A DNA stretch of 64,000 bases from Dehalococcoidia bacterium (GCA_041494685.1 JBGQBE010000001.1:1-64000), one strand, 5' to 3'. Positions 34,740-50,956 are shown, counted from the stretch's first letter. The notes: generated by a model from the sequence alone, not told the origin. Made by a program: numbers and translations.

Positions 34740-34814
34740 CACCAATCACCAATCACAACGCGGGGCAGGAGCGCGGCCTGCTGCGCGCGCCAGCCACCAG
34801 TCACTAATCACCAA
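34740..34814. repeat. CACYART-type heptamer tandem repeats
   Basis: caccaat caccaat cac (34740-34756); caccagt cactaat caccaag (34794-34814). Confidence 0.65.
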
Positions 34815-44610: not shown

Positions 44611-45366
44611 ATGGTGAACGCACCCGACAGGGCCCAGGTGGCCCTCGGGAACCCCAGCTTCGTGTGGCGGTTCGGACAGGATCGCCGCCTGAACCTCATC
44701 CGCCAGTACGCACCGCTCGACCGGGCGCGCATCCTTGACATCGGCTGCGGGCTCGGCGTCTACGTGCGGAAGTTCCGCGACCTCAGCGACGCCGTCATCG
44801 GCGTCGACGTGGACCGGAAGCGGCTGAGCGAAGGCGCGAAGACGGTGCCCGGTCTCATGCTCGCCGCCGGCGAGCATCTCCCGTTCCGCGACGGCTACTT
44901 CGACGTCGTCGTGCTCAACGAGGTGATCGAGCACGTGAACGACGACGCCGCGACGATGCGCGAGGCGTTGCGCGTGCTGCGCCCGGGCGGCCACATCGCC
45001 ATCTATGCGCCGAACCGGCTCTACCCGTTCGAGACGCACGGCATCTACCTGGGCAAGAAGTACGTCTTCGGCAACATCCCGTTGGTCAACTGGTTGCCGA
45101 CGCCCCTGCGCAACCGGCTGGTGCCCCACGCGCGCGCCTACACGCGCGCCGGCATCCGCCGCACTTACCGCGCCCTGGACGTCGACGTGCGCACCGAGAC
45201 GTACGTGTTCCCGGGATTCGACCAGATCATCGCGCGCCGCAAGCGCCTGGGCGCCGTGCTGCGCACCGTCCTGTACCGCGCGGAGCGGACGCCGCTGCGG
45301 ATGTTCGGGCTGTCGCATTTCATCGTGCTCCGCAAGCGCGGCGGCATGGCGGCGGTGGGGAGGTAG
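44611..45366 (+). CDS. Class I SAM-dependent methyltransferase
   Basis: ILDIGCGLG, LPFRDGYFD, EVIEHV, LRPGG. Confidence 0.92.
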   Translation: MVNAPDRAQVALGNPSFVWRFGQDRRLNLIRQYAPLDRARILDIGCGLGVYVRKFRDLSDAVIGVDVDRKRLSEGAKTVPGLMLAAGEHLPFRDGYFDVVVLNEVIEHVNDDAATMREALRVLRPGGHIAIYAPNRLYPFETHGIYLGKKYVFGNIPLVNWLPTPLRNRLVPHARAYTRAGIRRTYRALDVDVRTETYVFPGFDQIIARRKRLGAVLRTVLYRAERTPLRMFGLSHFIVLRKRGGMAAVGR

Positions 45367-45375
45367 GAGGCAGAG

Positions 45376-48204
45376 GTGGCGAAGAACCCCGCGACAAGGC
45401 GCATGCTCCGCGACCGCATGCGCGCTACGGTTCCTGGAAACGGCAACGGGATGCCGCGCTGGCTGCAGGCGCTCCTCGCCCTGGCGGGGCTCGGCGTCAT
45501 CGCCGTTGCCGCGGCGGGAGCGACCGGCTACGGCGTCTACCGCTCGTACGCCAGCGGGCTCCAGCCGCCCGACCAGGTGATCGCGAACGAGCCGTCGGGC
45601 GGCGCGCAGATCTTCGACCGCAACGGCAACCTGCTGTACGAGTACGTGGACGACCGCTCCGGCCTGCGCTCACCCGTGAAGCTCGAGGACATCTCGCCCT
45701 GGATGATCGCCGCCACCATCTCGACCGAGGACGCGAGCTACTGGAGCAACCCCGGCATCAACACCCGCGGCATGGTGCGCGCCGGGCTGGAGGCGCTGCA
45801 CCTGAAGAGCGCGGATGCCGCGAACACCACCGGCGGCAGCTCGATCACACAGCAGCTCGTGAAGAACGTCTACATCGCGCCGAAAGACCGCTACGCGCGC
45901 TCGTACAGCCGCAAGATCAAGGAGACGGTGTACGCGATCGAGCTGACCAACCGCTACTCCAAGAACCAGATCCTGGAGTGGTACCTCAACCAGATCTCGT
46001 ACGGCGGCCTCTACAACGGCGTCGAGGCGGCGGCGCAGGGGTACTTCGGCAAGAGTGCGAAAGACCTGACGTTGCCGGAGGCGGCGCTGCTGGCCGGCAT
46101 CCCCGCCGGCCCCAGCAGCTACGACCCGATCAACCACCCCGAAGCGGCGATCGCCCGCCGCAACGAGGTGCTGCGCCTGATGAAGTCGCGCAACCGCGTC
46201 GACGTGCCGGGCGAGAACGGCGACACGCTCCCGGCGTCGCGCTACCAGGTGAACGAGGACGGCGCCACCGTCGACGCGACCGACACGGCGTTCTACCTCT
46301 CGACGCTGGCTCCGCTGAACATCACCAAGCAGCGGTTCCCGGTCAAGGCGCCGCACTGGGTGTTCGACGTGATCGAGCCGCGGCTGCGGGCGATGTTCGG
46401 CGAGGAGGCGCTGTACCGCGGCGGCCTGCGCGTCACCACCACCATCGACGTGAACCTGCAGCAGAAGGCGCAGGACATCCTGGAGAACTGGATCAGCCAG
46501 TTCGAGGAGTCATCCGACGCGCACAACGGCGCTCTCGTGGCGATCGACCCGCGCACGTCGGAGATCATCACCTACGTCGGCTCGCGCGACTACTTCCGCG
46601 ATGACATCCAGGGCAAGAACGACAACGCCCAGGCGCTCAACTCGCCAGGATCCACGCTCAAGCCCTTCACCTACGAGACCGCCTTCGAGGAACTCGGCTG
46701 GGGCCCCGGCACGGAGATCCTGGACACGCCGATCACGTACAAGGACGGCGACAAGGACTTCACTCCTTCGAACCCCAGCCACGACTTCCACGGTCCGATC
46801 ACCGCGCACGACGCGCTCGGCAACTCTCTGAACATCCCGGCGTTCAAGACGGCGCTCTATGCGGGCGTGCCTAACGTCGTGGACGAATACAAGAAGTTCG
46901 GGCTCACTACGCTCGACCGAGGTGGCTACGGTCCATCCGTCACGCTGGGCGGCGTGGACATCAAGCTGATCGACGTGACGTATGCCTACACGGTGCTGGC
47001 GAACATGGGCATCATGCGCGGCGTGGAGACGACGGAGACGAGGACAGAGGGCAACCGCACGCTCGACCCGGTCGCGATCTTGCAGATCACCCGCGCGAAC
47101 GGCGACGTGGTCTACCCGAAGACGGACGACCACCGCGTCAAGGTGCAAGAGAAGAAGATCGTCGAGCCGCAGTACGCGTACATGATCGACAGCATCCTCT
47201 CCGACCCCAGCGCGTTCTGCCTGACGTACGGCTGCGGCGCGCTCAGCATCGGCCGCCCGTGGGGCGTGAAGACCGGCACCAGCGAGCCGTTCGAGGACAG
47301 CCACGCGATCGGCGAGACGTGGACGTACGGATTCACGCCGGACCTGGTGACCGGCGTCTGGGCCGGCAACGCCGACAACTCGCCCGTGCACAACATTACC
47401 TCCACGTCGATCTCGTACCGCGCCGTGCGGGATTTCATGGAAGAAGCGCTGAAGGACACGCCGGCCAGCACCTTCGATCGGCCGCCTGGCCTGGTCAACG
47501 TCGATACCTGCACGCCGTCCGGCCTGAAGGCCGGCCCGGAGTGCGGCCGCCCGGTGCACAACCTGCTCCCGGAGGCGACCGCACCGCAGAAGGAAGATGA
47601 CTGGTGGCGCAAGGTGAAGGTCGACATCCGTAACGGCTTGCTTGCCACGGAGCTGACGCCGCCGCAGTTCGTCCAGGAGCGCGTCGGGCTCGCCCTGCCG
47701 GAGAACCTCGCGCACCTCACGTGTGACAACCCCACGGCCTCGCACGACTGCTTCCTGCAGGCGCAGGCGAACGAGTGGATCAAGGTGCTGAACGCCAACG
47801 CCGCACCGACGGACAAGAGCAACGGGCAGGCGCCCGTCCGCATCGACACGCCGAAGAACGGCGAGAAGGTCGGCTCCGTCGTCCAGATCACCGGCATGGC
47901 CGACACACCGGACTTCGTCGCGTATCGCCTCGAGTTCGGCGCGGTCGACTCGCCGACGAGTCCGCCACTGGCATGGAACCTGATCATCCGCTCTGAGACA
48001 AAGCAACCGGGCGGCGGGCTGGGGCTGTGGAACACGACCGGCCTGCCCGATGGCCTCTACACGGTCCGGCTCGTGCTTGAAGACAAGACGCGTGGGGAAC
48101 TCTCCACGTACGTCTCCGTGCAGGTGGGCGCCGGCAACATCCGCCACTCGCCGACGCCGCTGCCCACGCCAACACCGCTTAGCCTCGGCGGCGGCGACAA
48201 CTGA
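45376..48204 (+). CDS. Class A penicillin-binding protein (transglycosylase-transpeptidase)
   Basis: TED, GGSSITQQLVK, RKIKE, YLN; STLK, SLN and KTG motifs; C-terminal Ig-like domain. Confidence 0.93.
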   Translation: MAKNPATRRMLRDRMRATVPGNGNGMPRWLQALLALAGLGVIAVAAAGATGYGVYRSYASGLQPPDQVIANEPSGGAQIFDRNGNLLYEYVDDRSGLRSPVKLEDISPWMIAATISTEDASYWSNPGINTRGMVRAGLEALHLKSADAANTTGGSSITQQLVKNVYIAPKDRYARSYSRKIKETVYAIELTNRYSKNQILEWYLNQISYGGLYNGVEAAAQGYFGKSAKDLTLPEAALLAGIPAGPSSYDPINHPEAAIARRNEVLRLMKSRNRVDVPGENGDTLPASRYQVNEDGATVDATDTAFYLSTLAPLNITKQRFPVKAPHWVFDVIEPRLRAMFGEEALYRGGLRVTTTIDVNLQQKAQDILENWISQFEESSDAHNGALVAIDPRTSEIITYVGSRDYFRDDIQGKNDNAQALNSPGSTLKPFTYETAFEELGWGPGTEILDTPITYKDGDKDFTPSNPSHDFHGPITAHDALGNSLNIPAFKTALYAGVPNVVDEYKKFGLTTLDRGGYGPSVTLGGVDIKLIDVTYAYTVLANMGIMRGVETTETRTEGNRTLDPVAILQITRANGDVVYPKTDDHRVKVQEKKIVEPQYAYMIDSILSDPSAFCLTYGCGALSIGRPWGVKTGTSEPFEDSHAIGETWTYGFTPDLVTGVWAGNADNSPVHNITSTSISYRAVRDFMEEALKDTPASTFDRPPGLVNVDTCTPSGLKAGPECGRPVHNLLPEATAPQKEDDWWRKVKVDIRNGLLATELTPPQFVQERVGLALPENLAHLTCDNPTASHDCFLQAQANEWIKVLNANAAPTDKSNGQAPVRIDTPKNGEKVGSVVQITGMADTPDFVAYRLEFGAVDSPTSPPLAWNLIIRSETKQPGGGLGLWNTTGLPDGLYTVRLVLEDKTRGELSTYVSVQVGAGNIRHSPTPLPTPTPLSLGGGDN

Positions 48205-48229
48205 TCCGGTAGGCGACCGTCGCCGGGAG

Positions 48230-48350
48230 CACAAAGAGGGGAGGGTTTGCACCCTCCCTTCTTCGTTGTCGAGGCATTCAGGGAGTTCCTGGCAGAGGAC
48301 CCGTGACTGCCCCCCTGAGGCGGCGAACGCTTCACCTACTCACGGGTCTT
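48230..48350 (-). ncRNA. Candidate stand-alone structured sRNA
   Basis: Upstream TTGTAA-N18-GATACT, internal pairings forming a pseudoknot, terminator GGGAGGGT-GCAA-ACCCTCCC; no credible ORF. Confidence 0.5.
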
Positions 48351-48437
48351 GAGTATCTCACGTACGCGAGGGTATTTACAATCCCGTGAGCAACGTCACG
48401 CGTGATTTCGCACGAATGTTGACGAAGCACCGCGCGC

Positions 48438-50444
48438 CTACTTGAAGCTGGCGGACTTCTGCGGGCTGTCATCCGTTATGTCGTACTGATACCGCGCGTC
48501 TTCCAGCGCCGTCACCGCCACCGCGATGGGCCGCGACGCCGGCAGCGACCCTGCCCGCAGTACCAGCACGCACGAGCCGCCGGCATCGGTCGAGCACTCC
48601 GTCACCTGTGTCGCTTCGTGCAGGAAGTGGTCCGGCAGCGGTGCGCCGCTCCACGCACCCAGCACCCGCACGCCGGATGCCGGCTTCTCGTCCGGCCCGG
48701 CTACGGTGACGATGAACTGCAGCAGGCCTCCCGCCTCGGTTGTCTGCGCCGAGACGACGTGCACGCCCTTCCCGGGCGCCGGTGCCGGCGGCGGCGCGGG
48801 CGCGCGCGTCCCCGCGTTCAGGAAGTCTTCGTACACGATCGTGGCGTAGAGCCACTGCCCGTCCTGCCCCAACGACGTCCCGCCCGACTGCGGCGAGTCG
48901 TAGAACGCCAGCCCCGACTGGAAGCCGCTCACGATCGTGGCAAACGGACGCGTGCGCACCCACCACCACTGCGACCACGGCCGCGCCGCGCGCACGCCGG
49001 TACCCGTCAGCAGCGACGCCGCCGCGAACGGGCCGCCCGCCTCGCCCGCGACACGCTCCGCCGGGATGCCGGCGTTGAGCCCGCCGACCCACGCCAGGCC
49101 GGCCGTCGCGGCCTGCTCCAACGCCGCGTCCTTCGCCATCTGCCCCAGGTACACCGCGTCGATGGTGCGCGCGATGATCCAGCCATTGCCGACGCTGCCA
49201 CCATCACCCTCGCCCGGCGGCGCCTCAGTCGCGACGTTGTCCCACTGCGCCGCCGGCGTCGTGTTGCGGGCGGCATCGGCTACGCCCGGCGCGACGATCT
49301 GGAAGACGTTCTTGTCGAGCATCTCGCGATACTGCAGCGCCACCTTGCGCGCCGTCTGCACCCAGAAGTCGCGGTCCTGGGCCGTGGGGATGTCGCGCCA
49401 CATGCGGAACATCGCTTCGAAGTGCGGCAGCGTGTCGAAGCTGCTGCGGCCCATCGTGCGCAGGTCGTACGACTCGGCCTCCTGCCGCACGGCCTTCGTG
49501 GCCGCCTCGAGCATCGCCGGGTCGCCTCCGTACTTGTAGAAGTCGTAGTCAACCGCGGCGCGAAGCGCCGGCGGATACTGCTCCGGCGCGTGGGCCAGCA
49601 GCCACTCCTCCGAGAGCTGCGCGCGGCGGTACGCCCGCTCCGCCTGGTCCCGCTCGTCACCCTGCATCGTCGCCGCGAATCGCGCGAGGCCGCGCATGCC
49701 GGCCGCCGTGTTGGCCGCGTCGTCGTTGTTGTACGGCCGGGTCGCCGACTCGAACTGAAACTTACCGGTGCCGGGATCGCTCGCGAGGAGCAGGTAGTCC
49801 GCCGCGCGGTCGATCAACTGCCTGATGTGTGTGCGCTGCTGGTCGCTCAGCACGACGCGACGGCGCGCGTACGACTCCGCCAGCCCAACCAGGTAGTCCG
49901 AGGTCGCGGGCACGCCGCCCGTGCCGCCGTTGCCGTCATAGAATCCGTAGTCGAGCTGGATCGGCGCGCTGCGGGCGTCGCCGCCATCGAACGCCACGGC
50001 GCTGAACGTCGTCTGGAACGCCAGGAACGTGTCGATGCGAAACGGCTCCGTCGCGAGATGCAGCTCCGGCGCGTCGACGACGATGCGGTACTCGCCGGGC
50101 TGGGTCACCTTCGAGAAGTCCGCGAGCCACAGCGGGATACCGTACGCCGTCCCGGCGTAGCTCGCGCGGCCCGCTGCGCGCCGTTGGCCCTTCGCGTCCA
50201 CGAGCTGCCACGCGAACGCCAGCGCCTCGCTGGCGCGGGCCTCCGTATCGTTCTGGCGGATCAGCAGGTGTTTGGTCGCCGCGCTCTCGTACCCCAGCGT
50301 GCTGTAGAGCAGCGTGTACTTCTGGTTGCCGGAGCGCACCTCGCCGCCGATGCGCACCGTCGCCGCGCTGCCGCCGCAGCCGCTCGCGGCGATCGTCGCG
50401 CCCGCGACGATCGCGGCGGCGAGCAGGTAGCAGATGCGCCTCAC
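48438..50444 (-). CDS. Lipoprotein with GH9-like Ig plus (alpha/alpha) barrel architecture
   Basis: GGAGG RBS, lipobox ASGC, LGYE...K, WLADFS...PGEY (cellulase N-terminal Ig-like), GLNAG. Confidence 0.7.
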   Translation of the reverse strand: MRRICYLLAAAIVAGATIAASGCGGSAATVRIGGEVRSGNQKYTLLYSTLGYESAATKHLLIRQNDTEARASEALAFAWQLVDAKGQRRAAGRASYAGTAYGIPLWLADFSKVTQPGEYRIVVDAPELHLATEPFRIDTFLAFQTTFSAVAFDGGDARSAPIQLDYGFYDGNGGTGGVPATSDYLVGLAESYARRRVVLSDQQRTHIRQLIDRAADYLLLASDPGTGKFQFESATRPYNNDDAANTAAGMRGLARFAATMQGDERDQAERAYRRAQLSEEWLLAHAPEQYPPALRAAVDYDFYKYGGDPAMLEAATKAVRQEAESYDLRTMGRSSFDTLPHFEAMFRMWRDIPTAQDRDFWVQTARKVALQYREMLDKNVFQIVAPGVADAARNTTPAAQWDNVATEAPPGEGDGGSVGNGWIIARTIDAVYLGQMAKDAALEQAATAGLAWVGGLNAGIPAERVAGEAGGPFAAASLLTGTGVRAARPWSQWWWVRTRPFATIVSGFQSGLAFYDSPQSGGTSLGQDGQWLYATIVYEDFLNAGTRAPAPPPAPAPGKGVHVVSAQTTEAGGLLQFIVTVAGPDEKPASGVRVLGAWSGAPLPDHFLHEATQVTECSTDAGGSCVLVLRAGSLPASRPIAVAVTALEDARYQYDITDDSPQKSASFK

Positions 50445-50539
50445 GCCCGGGCCTCCAGCCTCTCCGCCGGGCGCATCCGCGCGCCCGCATCCGCGGCGGG
50501 CACATGGTACACAACGCCTGCGCGAAGGCCGTTTCTTGT

Positions 50540-50639
50540 CCGCAGATGACATAGATAGACACAGATGTTGACGTTGCATGAGGCGAAGAGCGGAGGCGCT
50601 TGCCCCTCTCTAATCTGTGTCCACCTGTGTCATCTGTGA
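50540..50639. repeat. Inverted repeat built of 9-10 bp GACACAGAT-like units
   Basis: ccgcagatgacatagatagacacagat ... atctgtgtccacctgtgtcatctgtga; a related half-copy lies at 33889-33907. Confidence 0.75.

Positions 50640-50882: not shown

Positions 50883-50956
<74 letters not shown>

Follow-up and report, generated by a model that had tools for sequence, protein, structure and literature searches.

Among the small RNAs (sRNAs) of Hfq-poor bacteria, RsaE/RoxS of the Firmicutes and the cia-dependent csRNAs of streptococci are of the anti-Shine-Dalgarno type. They measure ~90-150 nt, have their own promoter and an intrinsic terminator, fold into simple stem-loops that display short invariant C/U-rich motifs complementary to ribosome-binding sites, and do not require Hfq. 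In Chloroflexota, to our knowledge, almost nothing is known about riboregulation. Here we describe a previously undescribed, lineage-restricted sRNA candidate; covariation supports two of its hairpins, and an invariant loop resembles an anti-Shine-Dalgarno sequence. It lies on the minus strand of a 64,000-nt stretch of DNA (hereafter the window) from a Dehalococcoidia bacterium (GCA_041494685.1, JBGQBE010000001.1:1-64000), between the convergent genes of a class A penicillin-binding protein (PBP) and of a 713-aa protein.

The candidate resembles RsaE/RoxS and the csRNAs in its size, in its intrinsic terminator and predicted promoter, in its simple stem-loops exposing a short invariant C/U-rich motif, and in a probable independence from Hfq, which has no match in the source genome (G000). 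On the other hand, none of these RNAs was returned by cmscan of positions 48150-48500 at E <= 10, the candidate has a single C/U-rich motif whereas theirs are several, no conserved target was found among the candidates examined here, and the phylum is a different one. The Yfr1-type sRNAs of cyanobacteria are also short and lineage-restricted, with an ultra-conserved unpaired motif on the scale of an octamer framed by hairpins. However, the Yfr1 motif is located between two hairpins and the present one in a hairpin apex, and the sequences are unrelated, with no Rfam match. The enterobacterial MicL and DapZ arise from internal promoters within a 3′ untranslated region (3′UTR); similarly, in five of the six genomes that carry the candidate (hereafter carriers), it directly follows a co-oriented protein gene, and a single visible terminator serves both. 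In contrast to these Hfq-dependent RNAs, the candidate stands alone in the carrier G012, and there is no homology. Finally, Chloroflexi-1 and other Chloroflexota RNA motifs are candidates from comparative genomics (Weinberg et al. 2010, PMC2864571); like them, the element described here is a structured intergenic RNA of this phylum detected by sequence comparison.

We consider, with a probability of roughly 0.55, that the locus encodes a stand-alone sRNA of ~118 nt with three nested hairpins, its own extended -10 element and a shared terminator, putatively pairing in trans via an apical loop. Transcription of the minus strand would start from a TGn-extended -10 promoter and stop at a bidirectional intrinsic terminator common to the convergent PBP gene. 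The RNA would fold into two stem-loops, SL1 and SL2, the latter presenting the invariant C/U-rich CCUCUGCC at its apex, followed by the terminator hairpin. The apical loop would then pair in trans, without Hfq, with G/A-rich Shine-Dalgarno regions (5′-GGCAGAGG-3′-like) and thereby modulate translation. From the features presented below we infer both a discrete RNA and such an action in trans. An earlier note on this DNA had proposed an unannotated structured non-coding RNA of ~120 nt on the minus strand between the convergent genes. This proposal is supported, the RNA having a -10 region that is conserved and an intrinsic terminator, and all the strings quoted by the note were found, upon direct check of the sequence, on the minus strand where it had placed them. 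The locus is supported by a conserved promoter element, covarying hairpins, an invariant loop and a fixed linkage to a cell-wall synthase gene, and the sRNA could join the RNA family databases. It would be one lineage-restricted sRNA among many in bacteria, apparently lost repeatedly in its family, and it leaves current concepts unchallenged.

Six carriers in one Chloroflexota family

The element is present in six species representatives belonging to four genera of one Chloroflexota family, and in each of them it points toward the 3′ end of a class A PBP gene, in convergent orientation. All carriers are metagenome-assembled genomes (MAGs) of uncultured Chloroflexia or Dehalococcoidia. In the source genome (3.29 Mb in 87 contigs, 97.6% complete), it occurs as a single copy. 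BLAST against 41 relatives gave matches only in two genomes of genus g3, covering window positions 48362-48234, from the -10 box to the terminator. A third g3 genome emerged from a pattern scan of the public species representatives, and G012 (genus g13; 35.5 bits) from a search with covariance model R1. G001 (genus g2; 23.1 bits) was recovered when the stretch past the PBP gene was searched in genomes of the family. The pattern ACC-N5-GTMGGTRR-N28-50-CCTCTGCC was found in 6/93 genomes of the order, at one site each, with no occurrence of its reversed control. In addition, the distance between CTCTGCC and the stop codon of PBP is 79-93 nt in all six carriers. Among the 30 family loci examined for this motif beside PBP (five of them with <140 nt available, and G041 standing outside the set), five possess it.

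Wider searches returned no further carrier. A stricter three-block pattern applied to all species representatives gave 30 loci, five of which are known carriers; when the 25 others were checked with R1 together with two known carriers, none of the 25 matched at E <= 1. Over 36 family genomes, R1 yielded no convincing member beyond G012: of the four alignments inspected, that of G012 is real, that of G015 is doubtful, and the two in G006 involve only the terminator. Ten loci from a metagenome scan with CAGTCACG-N1-6-TCCTCTGCCAGG were discarded as chance matches because all score at most 10 bits with R1. The single-sequence model R2 proved too insensitive, its scores for G012 (14.9 bits) and G001 (10.9 bits) both being within noise. 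The family counts include one row from an unpublished genome without the sRNA, G021, on which alone no claim depends. At the corresponding position, non-carriers have either tRNA genes or, after a short spacer containing a plain hairpin, a homolog of the 713-aa gene.

No Rfam family matches the RNA, nor had the earlier note recognized one. With the 4227 models of Rfam 15, a library that presumably includes the motifs of Weinberg et al., the only matches at gathering threshold in the window are two tRNA genes (872-943 and 50883-50953, both on the plus strand), and the five homologous loci match only a tRNA; in this respect the candidate differs from Chloroflexi-1-type motifs. A permissive scan of 48150-48500 (E <= 10) gave eight sub-threshold matches, all on the terminator hairpin, the best reaching 21 bits against a gathering threshold of 71. 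A full-text literature search, as represented by its listings and abstracts, produced no report on sRNAs of this lineage. No open reading frame (ORF) is conserved: from one RNA to another, the longest ORF changes in both its frame and its peptide, and the differences in loop length among the six are not multiples of three. On this evidence the RNA is non-coding across the six carriers.

Nested hairpins versus a pseudoknot

The minimum free energy (MFE) folds of all six RNAs have the same nested architecture, in which a short 5′ tail is followed by SL1, SL2, an A-rich linker and the terminator (Table 1). SL1 consists of an outer helix, CCC.UGAG/CUCA.GGG, and an inner helix, GGUGAA/UUCGCC, closed by the loop GCG, and its 5′ strand is conserved as ACC-N5-GUMGGURR. 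This inner register is the one favored by the comparison, instead of the AGGTG/CGCCT pairing read in the earlier note. At the apex of SL2, CCUCUGCC is the only invariant unpaired stretch of the RNA; in G001 it is found within a 14-nt open loop.

The sense RNA of the source genome, taken as 124-128 nt, folds at -61.4 to -62.2 kcal/mol (z = -5.04), and 0/200 shuffles fold as well; the z-scores of the antisense strand range from -2.65 to -3.53. Across the six carriers, the sense z-scores extend from -1.86 to -7.04, and sense is more stable than antisense in 5/6. The minus strand had been preferred in the earlier note on account of G-U pairs, and this argument holds for the whole set, where 16 G-U cells of the six-sequence alignment A10 would become A-C mismatches on the other strand. 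Together, these cells and the greater stability of the sense RNA in 5/6 carriers fix the strand.

To obtain the alignments, R2 was built from the fold of the source RNA and used to align four sequences (A7); the model was then rebuilt (R3) and all six sequences were aligned (A10). In A7, 95.3% of the cells are paired and 6 pairs are changed on both sides. In A10, standard pairs fill 90.1% of the 162 cells of nested SL1 and SL2, against a mean of 76.9% after shuffling, and 13/27 pairs are changed on both sides; neither value is reached in 500 shuffles. Slid-partner controls give only 37-55% of paired cells and 1-3 pairs changed on both sides. Compensatory changes are found in both hairpins: two-sided changes affect 8/13 pairs in helices 1 and 2 (SL1), where 93-94% of the cells pair, and 5/14 pairs in helices 3-6 (SL2). 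RNAalifold missed SL1 because MAFFT alignments misalign its 3′ strand. The covariation counts are supportive of the nested fold, not proof of it. Independent support, separate from A10, comes from a strain variant (run X2), recovered from contigs of four sediment runs, that shows 13 differences. In its SL1, A48331->C accompanies U48327->G, so that an A-U pair becomes C-G; in SL2, C48309->U and C48281->U each retain a G-U pair. No listed difference affects the CCUCUGCC loop.

The earlier note had instead arranged four segments in the order A-B-A′-B′, as an H-type pseudoknot or a two-state switch made from a CRP/FNR-activated promoter. In its favor, A-A′ is a perfect 9-bp helix in G000 and G041 (duplex -17.4 kcal/mol), forcing A-A′ in the source RNA costs just 3.0 kcal/mol (-32.9 versus an MFE of -35.9 kcal/mol), and the proposed pairs do form in 76.0% of 125 A10 cells. 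However, shuffled alignments average 72.9% for these pairs and reach the observed value in 36/500 cases; only 4/21 pairs are changed on both sides (61/500 shuffles), and the covariation score is 0.168 (24/500 shuffles) compared to 0.479 for the nested fold. In the slid-partner controls, 30-46% of the cells pair and 0-2 pairs show two-sided changes. The A-A′ duplex is weak (-9.4 to -10.3 kcal/mol) in all four remaining carriers, 5/9 pairs of helix A depart by unpaired cells only, and where A varies in sequence, the compensating change is local, within SL1. Moreover, forcing B-B′ costs 12 kcal/mol in the source RNA. In a pseudoknot, loops must be long enough to span the partner helices. Here B and A′ are separated by 0 nt and A′ and B′ by 2 nt, with a stem A of 9 bp, so the two helices cannot coexist. 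A-A′ and B-B′ are not supported as conserved helices. A lineage-specific alternative conformer is possible in G000 and G041, where an A-A′ fold could gate the exposure of the loop.

The regulatory half of the proposal was based on a palindrome upstream of the promoter. Its half-sites, with a 6-nt spacer, are close to the CRP consensus TGTGA-N6-TCACA (8/10 positions match), and the source genome encodes one HTH_Crp_2 protein. The palindrome is centered at 48392.5, about -45.5 from the putative start at 48347, to be compared with the -41.5 or -61.5 expected of such activator sites. It lies, however, in the unconserved part of the whole-intergenic alignment A1. The genome contains 17 copies against 9.07 expected; the spacing profile of the pattern is 3-periodic, as in coding sequence, and 16/17 copies are located within open frames of at least 105 aa. 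Since only the copy at the sRNA locus falls outside long open frames, there is no sign of a CRP regulon. Taken together, a CRP/FNR-driven pseudoknot or switch seems very improbable, and the nested sRNA is retained below.

Transcription unit and flanking genes

The two convergent genes are separated by 233 nt (48205-48437). The proposed RNA is on the strand of the 713-aa gene, downstream of it, and faces the 3′ end of the PBP gene. In A1, the sequence is unconserved from the 713-aa stop codon to the -10 element; conservation opens at GTG(A/G)(G/C)ATACT and ends at the intrinsic terminator. GATACT occupies 48357-48352 and the preceding TG 48360-48359. The element reads TGaGATACT in G000, G041 and G001, TGGCATACT in G002 and G019, and TGTATGAT in G012, and is found 4-6 nt before the conserved ACC in all six carriers. 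This conservation of TGn-NATACT or TGTATGAT in 6/6 homologs argues for a promoter. The 5′ end would be 5-6 nt downstream of the -10 box, and the 3′ end would lie in the U-containing tail past the terminator. An inverted repeat, AGTAT(G/C)-N7/8-CATACT (also written AGTATG-N7-CATACT), overlaps the -10 box in genus g3 (G002, L002:270-300; G019, L003:1577-1600, minus strand). It is absent from G000 and could be an operator.

The terminator core (48239-48258) has an 8-bp stem with 6 G-C pairs, a 4-nt GCAA loop and the minus-strand tail CTCTTTGTGC. As the earlier note had it, the hairpin is called on the minus strand, and a stem with a GGGAGG/CCUCCC core is present in 6/6 carriers. Its GNRA loop, in contrast, is not a conserved feature, being limited to G000 (GCAA) and G041 (GAAA).

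An RNA so placed might not be a gene of its own but a structured 3′UTR or terminator region of the 713-aa gene, serving as a stability or termination element. In G000, genus g3 and G001, that gene immediately precedes the RNA in the same orientation, and the discrete transcript is itself a reading of the sequence. Moreover, a terminator scan showed no separate terminator between the 713-aa stop codon and the RNA, so that the sRNA terminator may serve the 713-aa transcript as well. We nevertheless give this view little credence. G012 carries the element without the 713-aa gene, downstream of tRNA-Cys and tRNA-Leu genes on the opposite strand; the element is therefore not merely the 3′UTR of that gene, and a promoter of its own would be required. 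In addition, where family genomes keep the PBP and 713-aa genes side by side but not the element, the intergenic region is short and contains a plain hairpin, and the stretch from the stop codon to the -10 is unconserved while the -10 itself is kept. We therefore go on with the stand-alone sRNA.

Table 1 Features of the sRNA locus and of its surroundings in the window
Feature	Position	Strand	Basis or result
Candidate sRNA transcript, ~118 nt	48230-48347	-	Conservation block in alignments A1, A3 and A10; BLAST matches in relatives
Extended -10 element TGaGATACT	48352-48360	-	Upstream edge of conservation; kept in 6/6 carriers
-35-like hexamer TTGTAA, 18-nt spacer to -10	48376-48381	-	Read in sequence
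Palindrome CGTGA-N6-TCACG	48385-48400		1 match in window, 0.11 expected; at least 1 in 8/100 shuffles
SL1 hairpin, 13-18 bp	48312-48346	-	MFE and A10 pair counts
SL2 hairpin (GGCA/UGCC, UCA/UGA, GGG/CCC, UCCU/AGGA)	48273-48311	-	MFE and A10
CCUCUGCC, SL2 apex (loop CUGCC and closing CCU)	48291-48298	-	Identical in 6/6 homologs
Bidirectional intrinsic terminator common to sRNA and PBP gene	48231-48266	both	Terminator scan; extended stem in fold
Segment A, GACCCGTGA	48348-48340	-	String check
Segment B, TCAGGGGGGCAG	48318-48307	-	String check
Segment A′, TCACGGGTC	48306-48298	-	String check
Segment B′, CTGCC and CTCCCTGA	48295-48291 and 48285-48278	-	String check
Class A PBP gene, 942 aa	45376-48204	+	Pfam Transgly 182.3 bits, Transpeptidase 61.3 bits
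713-aa protein gene, CelD_N Ig-like domain	48438-50579	-	Gene call and Pfam

Several minor observations concern the flanking genes. In many non-carriers (L033, L043, L045, L049, L051-L053, L040 and L037), a TATAAT-like box and then a tRNA cluster come after the PBP gene, on its strand, in place of the 713-aa gene; the tRNA-Leu/Cys pair of these loci is the same as that of G012. Because the tRNA cluster replaces the 713-aa gene in many non-carriers, the 3′ flank of PBP appears to be a rearrangement hot spot. At the other end of the PBP gene, a 6-codon upstream ORF (ATG GCG GCG GTG GGG AGG TAG; 45346-45366, plus strand) ends in frame 9 nt before the GTG start, overlapping the Shine-Dalgarno region of PBP, and may serve in translational coupling or as a leader peptide. 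In G041 (OY969567.1, ~1921935-1924623), the PBP ortholog is in pieces: the N-terminal match begins only at residue 36, and the C-terminal part is split into three fragments (open frames of 168-362 aa). Such a pattern suggests frameshifts or assembly errors in that MAG.

The invariant loop and its possible partners

The complement of CCUCUGCC, GGCAGAGG, contains the Shine-Dalgarno-like AGAGG. The loop thus resembles an anti-Shine-Dalgarno sequence and is a candidate seed or recognition site. Hfq (PF17209) was not found in the source genome (97.58% complete), in which positive controls were found; base pairing would therefore be Hfq-independent, and the RNA does not fit the description of an Hfq-dependent sRNA. 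GGCAGAGG occurs at 119 sites on both strands of this genome, 30 of which precede a start codon with an ORF of at least 60 aa (62/356 for the reversed control). A blastn-short search of the sRNA against the genome gave matches of no more than 14 nt when exact and of 19 nt when a single mismatch is allowed (E = 0.29).

A number of results weigh against the stand-alone, trans-acting sRNA, beginning with the candidate targets: among PBP, Lit, ClpP, SDR and a substrate-binding protein (SBP), no target tracks the presence of the RNA. In the source genome, GGCAGAGG at 45369-45376 overlaps the GTG start of PBP (-7..+1), but this exact 8-mer is found in 1/6 carriers and 0/27 non-carriers, and PBP was rejected as a carrier-specific target. 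The g3 carriers have GGCAGGAGG at the PBP start, as do several non-carriers. Over 33 orthologous start regions, pairing energies average -12.05 kcal/mol in carriers and -11.18 kcal/mol in non-carriers (Mann-Whitney p = 0.146), and across the family the pairing of CCUCUGCC with PBP translation initiation regions ranges from -8.8 to -15.4 kcal/mol, consistent with a generic affinity for Shine-Dalgarno sequences. ClpP, SDR and SBP were also rejected, their sites being restricted to G000 and absent from orthologs. The Lit homolog (lipoprotein intramolecular transacylase, PF07314; 117.4 bits) has GGCAGAGG-N9-ATG upstream in 5/6 carriers. As a carrier-specific target it was rejected too, the site being also present in 17/24 non-carriers (at a contig end, one of the 24 rows could not be read). 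In G012, itself a carrier, the site reads GGCAAAGG while the RNA keeps CCUCUGCC.

Other such points concern the transcript, the fold and the distribution. The transcript and both of its ends are deduced from sequence, all 13 runs with the locus being DNA sediment metagenomes. Of the promoter put forward in the earlier note, the -10 hexamer is conserved as part of an extended -10 element, but the -35 hexamer, which matches the consensus at 4/6 positions, is not conserved among the carrier homologs. In addition, a strict sigma-70 scan calls no promoter at the locus, because the hexamers match at 8/12 positions for a threshold of 9. Fitting A10 to the nested structure inflates its pair counts, and with six related sequences plus one variant the statistical power is low; within this set, the z-score of G001 is weak (-1.86, reached by 11/200 shuffles). 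Finally, the carriers are scattered in a PBP gene tree, requiring 4 changes for 5 rows, a number as low as in 84/500 shuffles; at least two of these changes are forced by well-supported branches of this quick single-gene tree, which left out G041 (fragmented PBP), G015, G022 and G042. Scattered carriers and constant synteny suggest an old origin followed by repeated loss, and such loss implies that the RNA is dispensable.

The match at the PBP start also bears on a possible action in cis, where convergent transcription or pairing of the 3′ ends would tune the termination or stability of the PBP mRNA, the loop of the source RNA pairing with the PBP start as well. The RNA adjoins the PBP 3′ end in 6/6 carriers, including G012 with its changed other neighbor, and the terminator is bidirectional. 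Furthermore, with 119 copies of GGCAGAGG in 3.29 Mb, a match in a given 25-nt site has a chance of only ~5e-4. Such an action is nevertheless improbable: the transcripts would overlap over the ~40-nt terminator only, leaving no role for SL1, SL2 and the invariant loop, the start match is missing from the other five carriers while non-carriers have the similar GGCAGGAGG, and plain vertical inheritance can give constant synteny.

An RNA that does not pair but binds a protein is another alternative, which we regard as unlikely without being negligible. The SL2 apex and the 5′ strand of SL1 would then bind a CsrA-type or other protein, for sequestration or as a scaffold. Two CsrA homologs are encoded in the source genome (C4:75466-75615 and C28:2352-2507; 68.9 and 68.5 bits), which, like the missing Hfq match, bears on the way in which any sRNA would work there. 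A GGA is found just 3′ of the loop in 5/6 RNAs (CCAGGAA, CCAGGGAA or CCGGGAA), and GGGAGG is present in the 5′ strand of the terminator in 6/6. The absence of a carrier-specific mRNA among the candidate targets would fit such a function, and so would SL1, where one strand is conserved while its partner drifts, suggesting a second constraint on the 5′ strand. However, known CsrA sponges have many GGA loops. Here each RNA has only one or two GGA, in stems and not in loops, unlike the multiple loop-exposed GGA of the CsrB/RsmZ type; the first GGA is absent from G001, and the invariant residues are those of CCUCUGCC, not GGA.

Within the preferred reading of a trans-pairing sRNA, a specific role as an envelope riboregulator is a long shot. 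CCUCUGCC would dock on the Shine-Dalgarno sequence of the Lit mRNA, whose site in 5/6 carriers, 13-20 nt ahead of the ATG, complements the loop perfectly over 8 nt, and in the source genome also on the PBP start region. If this were true, one small RNA would couple lipoprotein modification with peptidoglycan synthesis. As a separate observation, the 5′ region of Lit (G000 contig C32, ~34740-34790, minus strand; orthologs L197-L225) is almost invariant family-wide. It reads ...GAGAATGCGgaTGTCGCGGCGGCGGGGCGGCAGAGGGARACCCAC-ATG and is far more conserved than neighboring start regions, which suggests a cis-regulatory leader or a fixed promoter and untranslated region.

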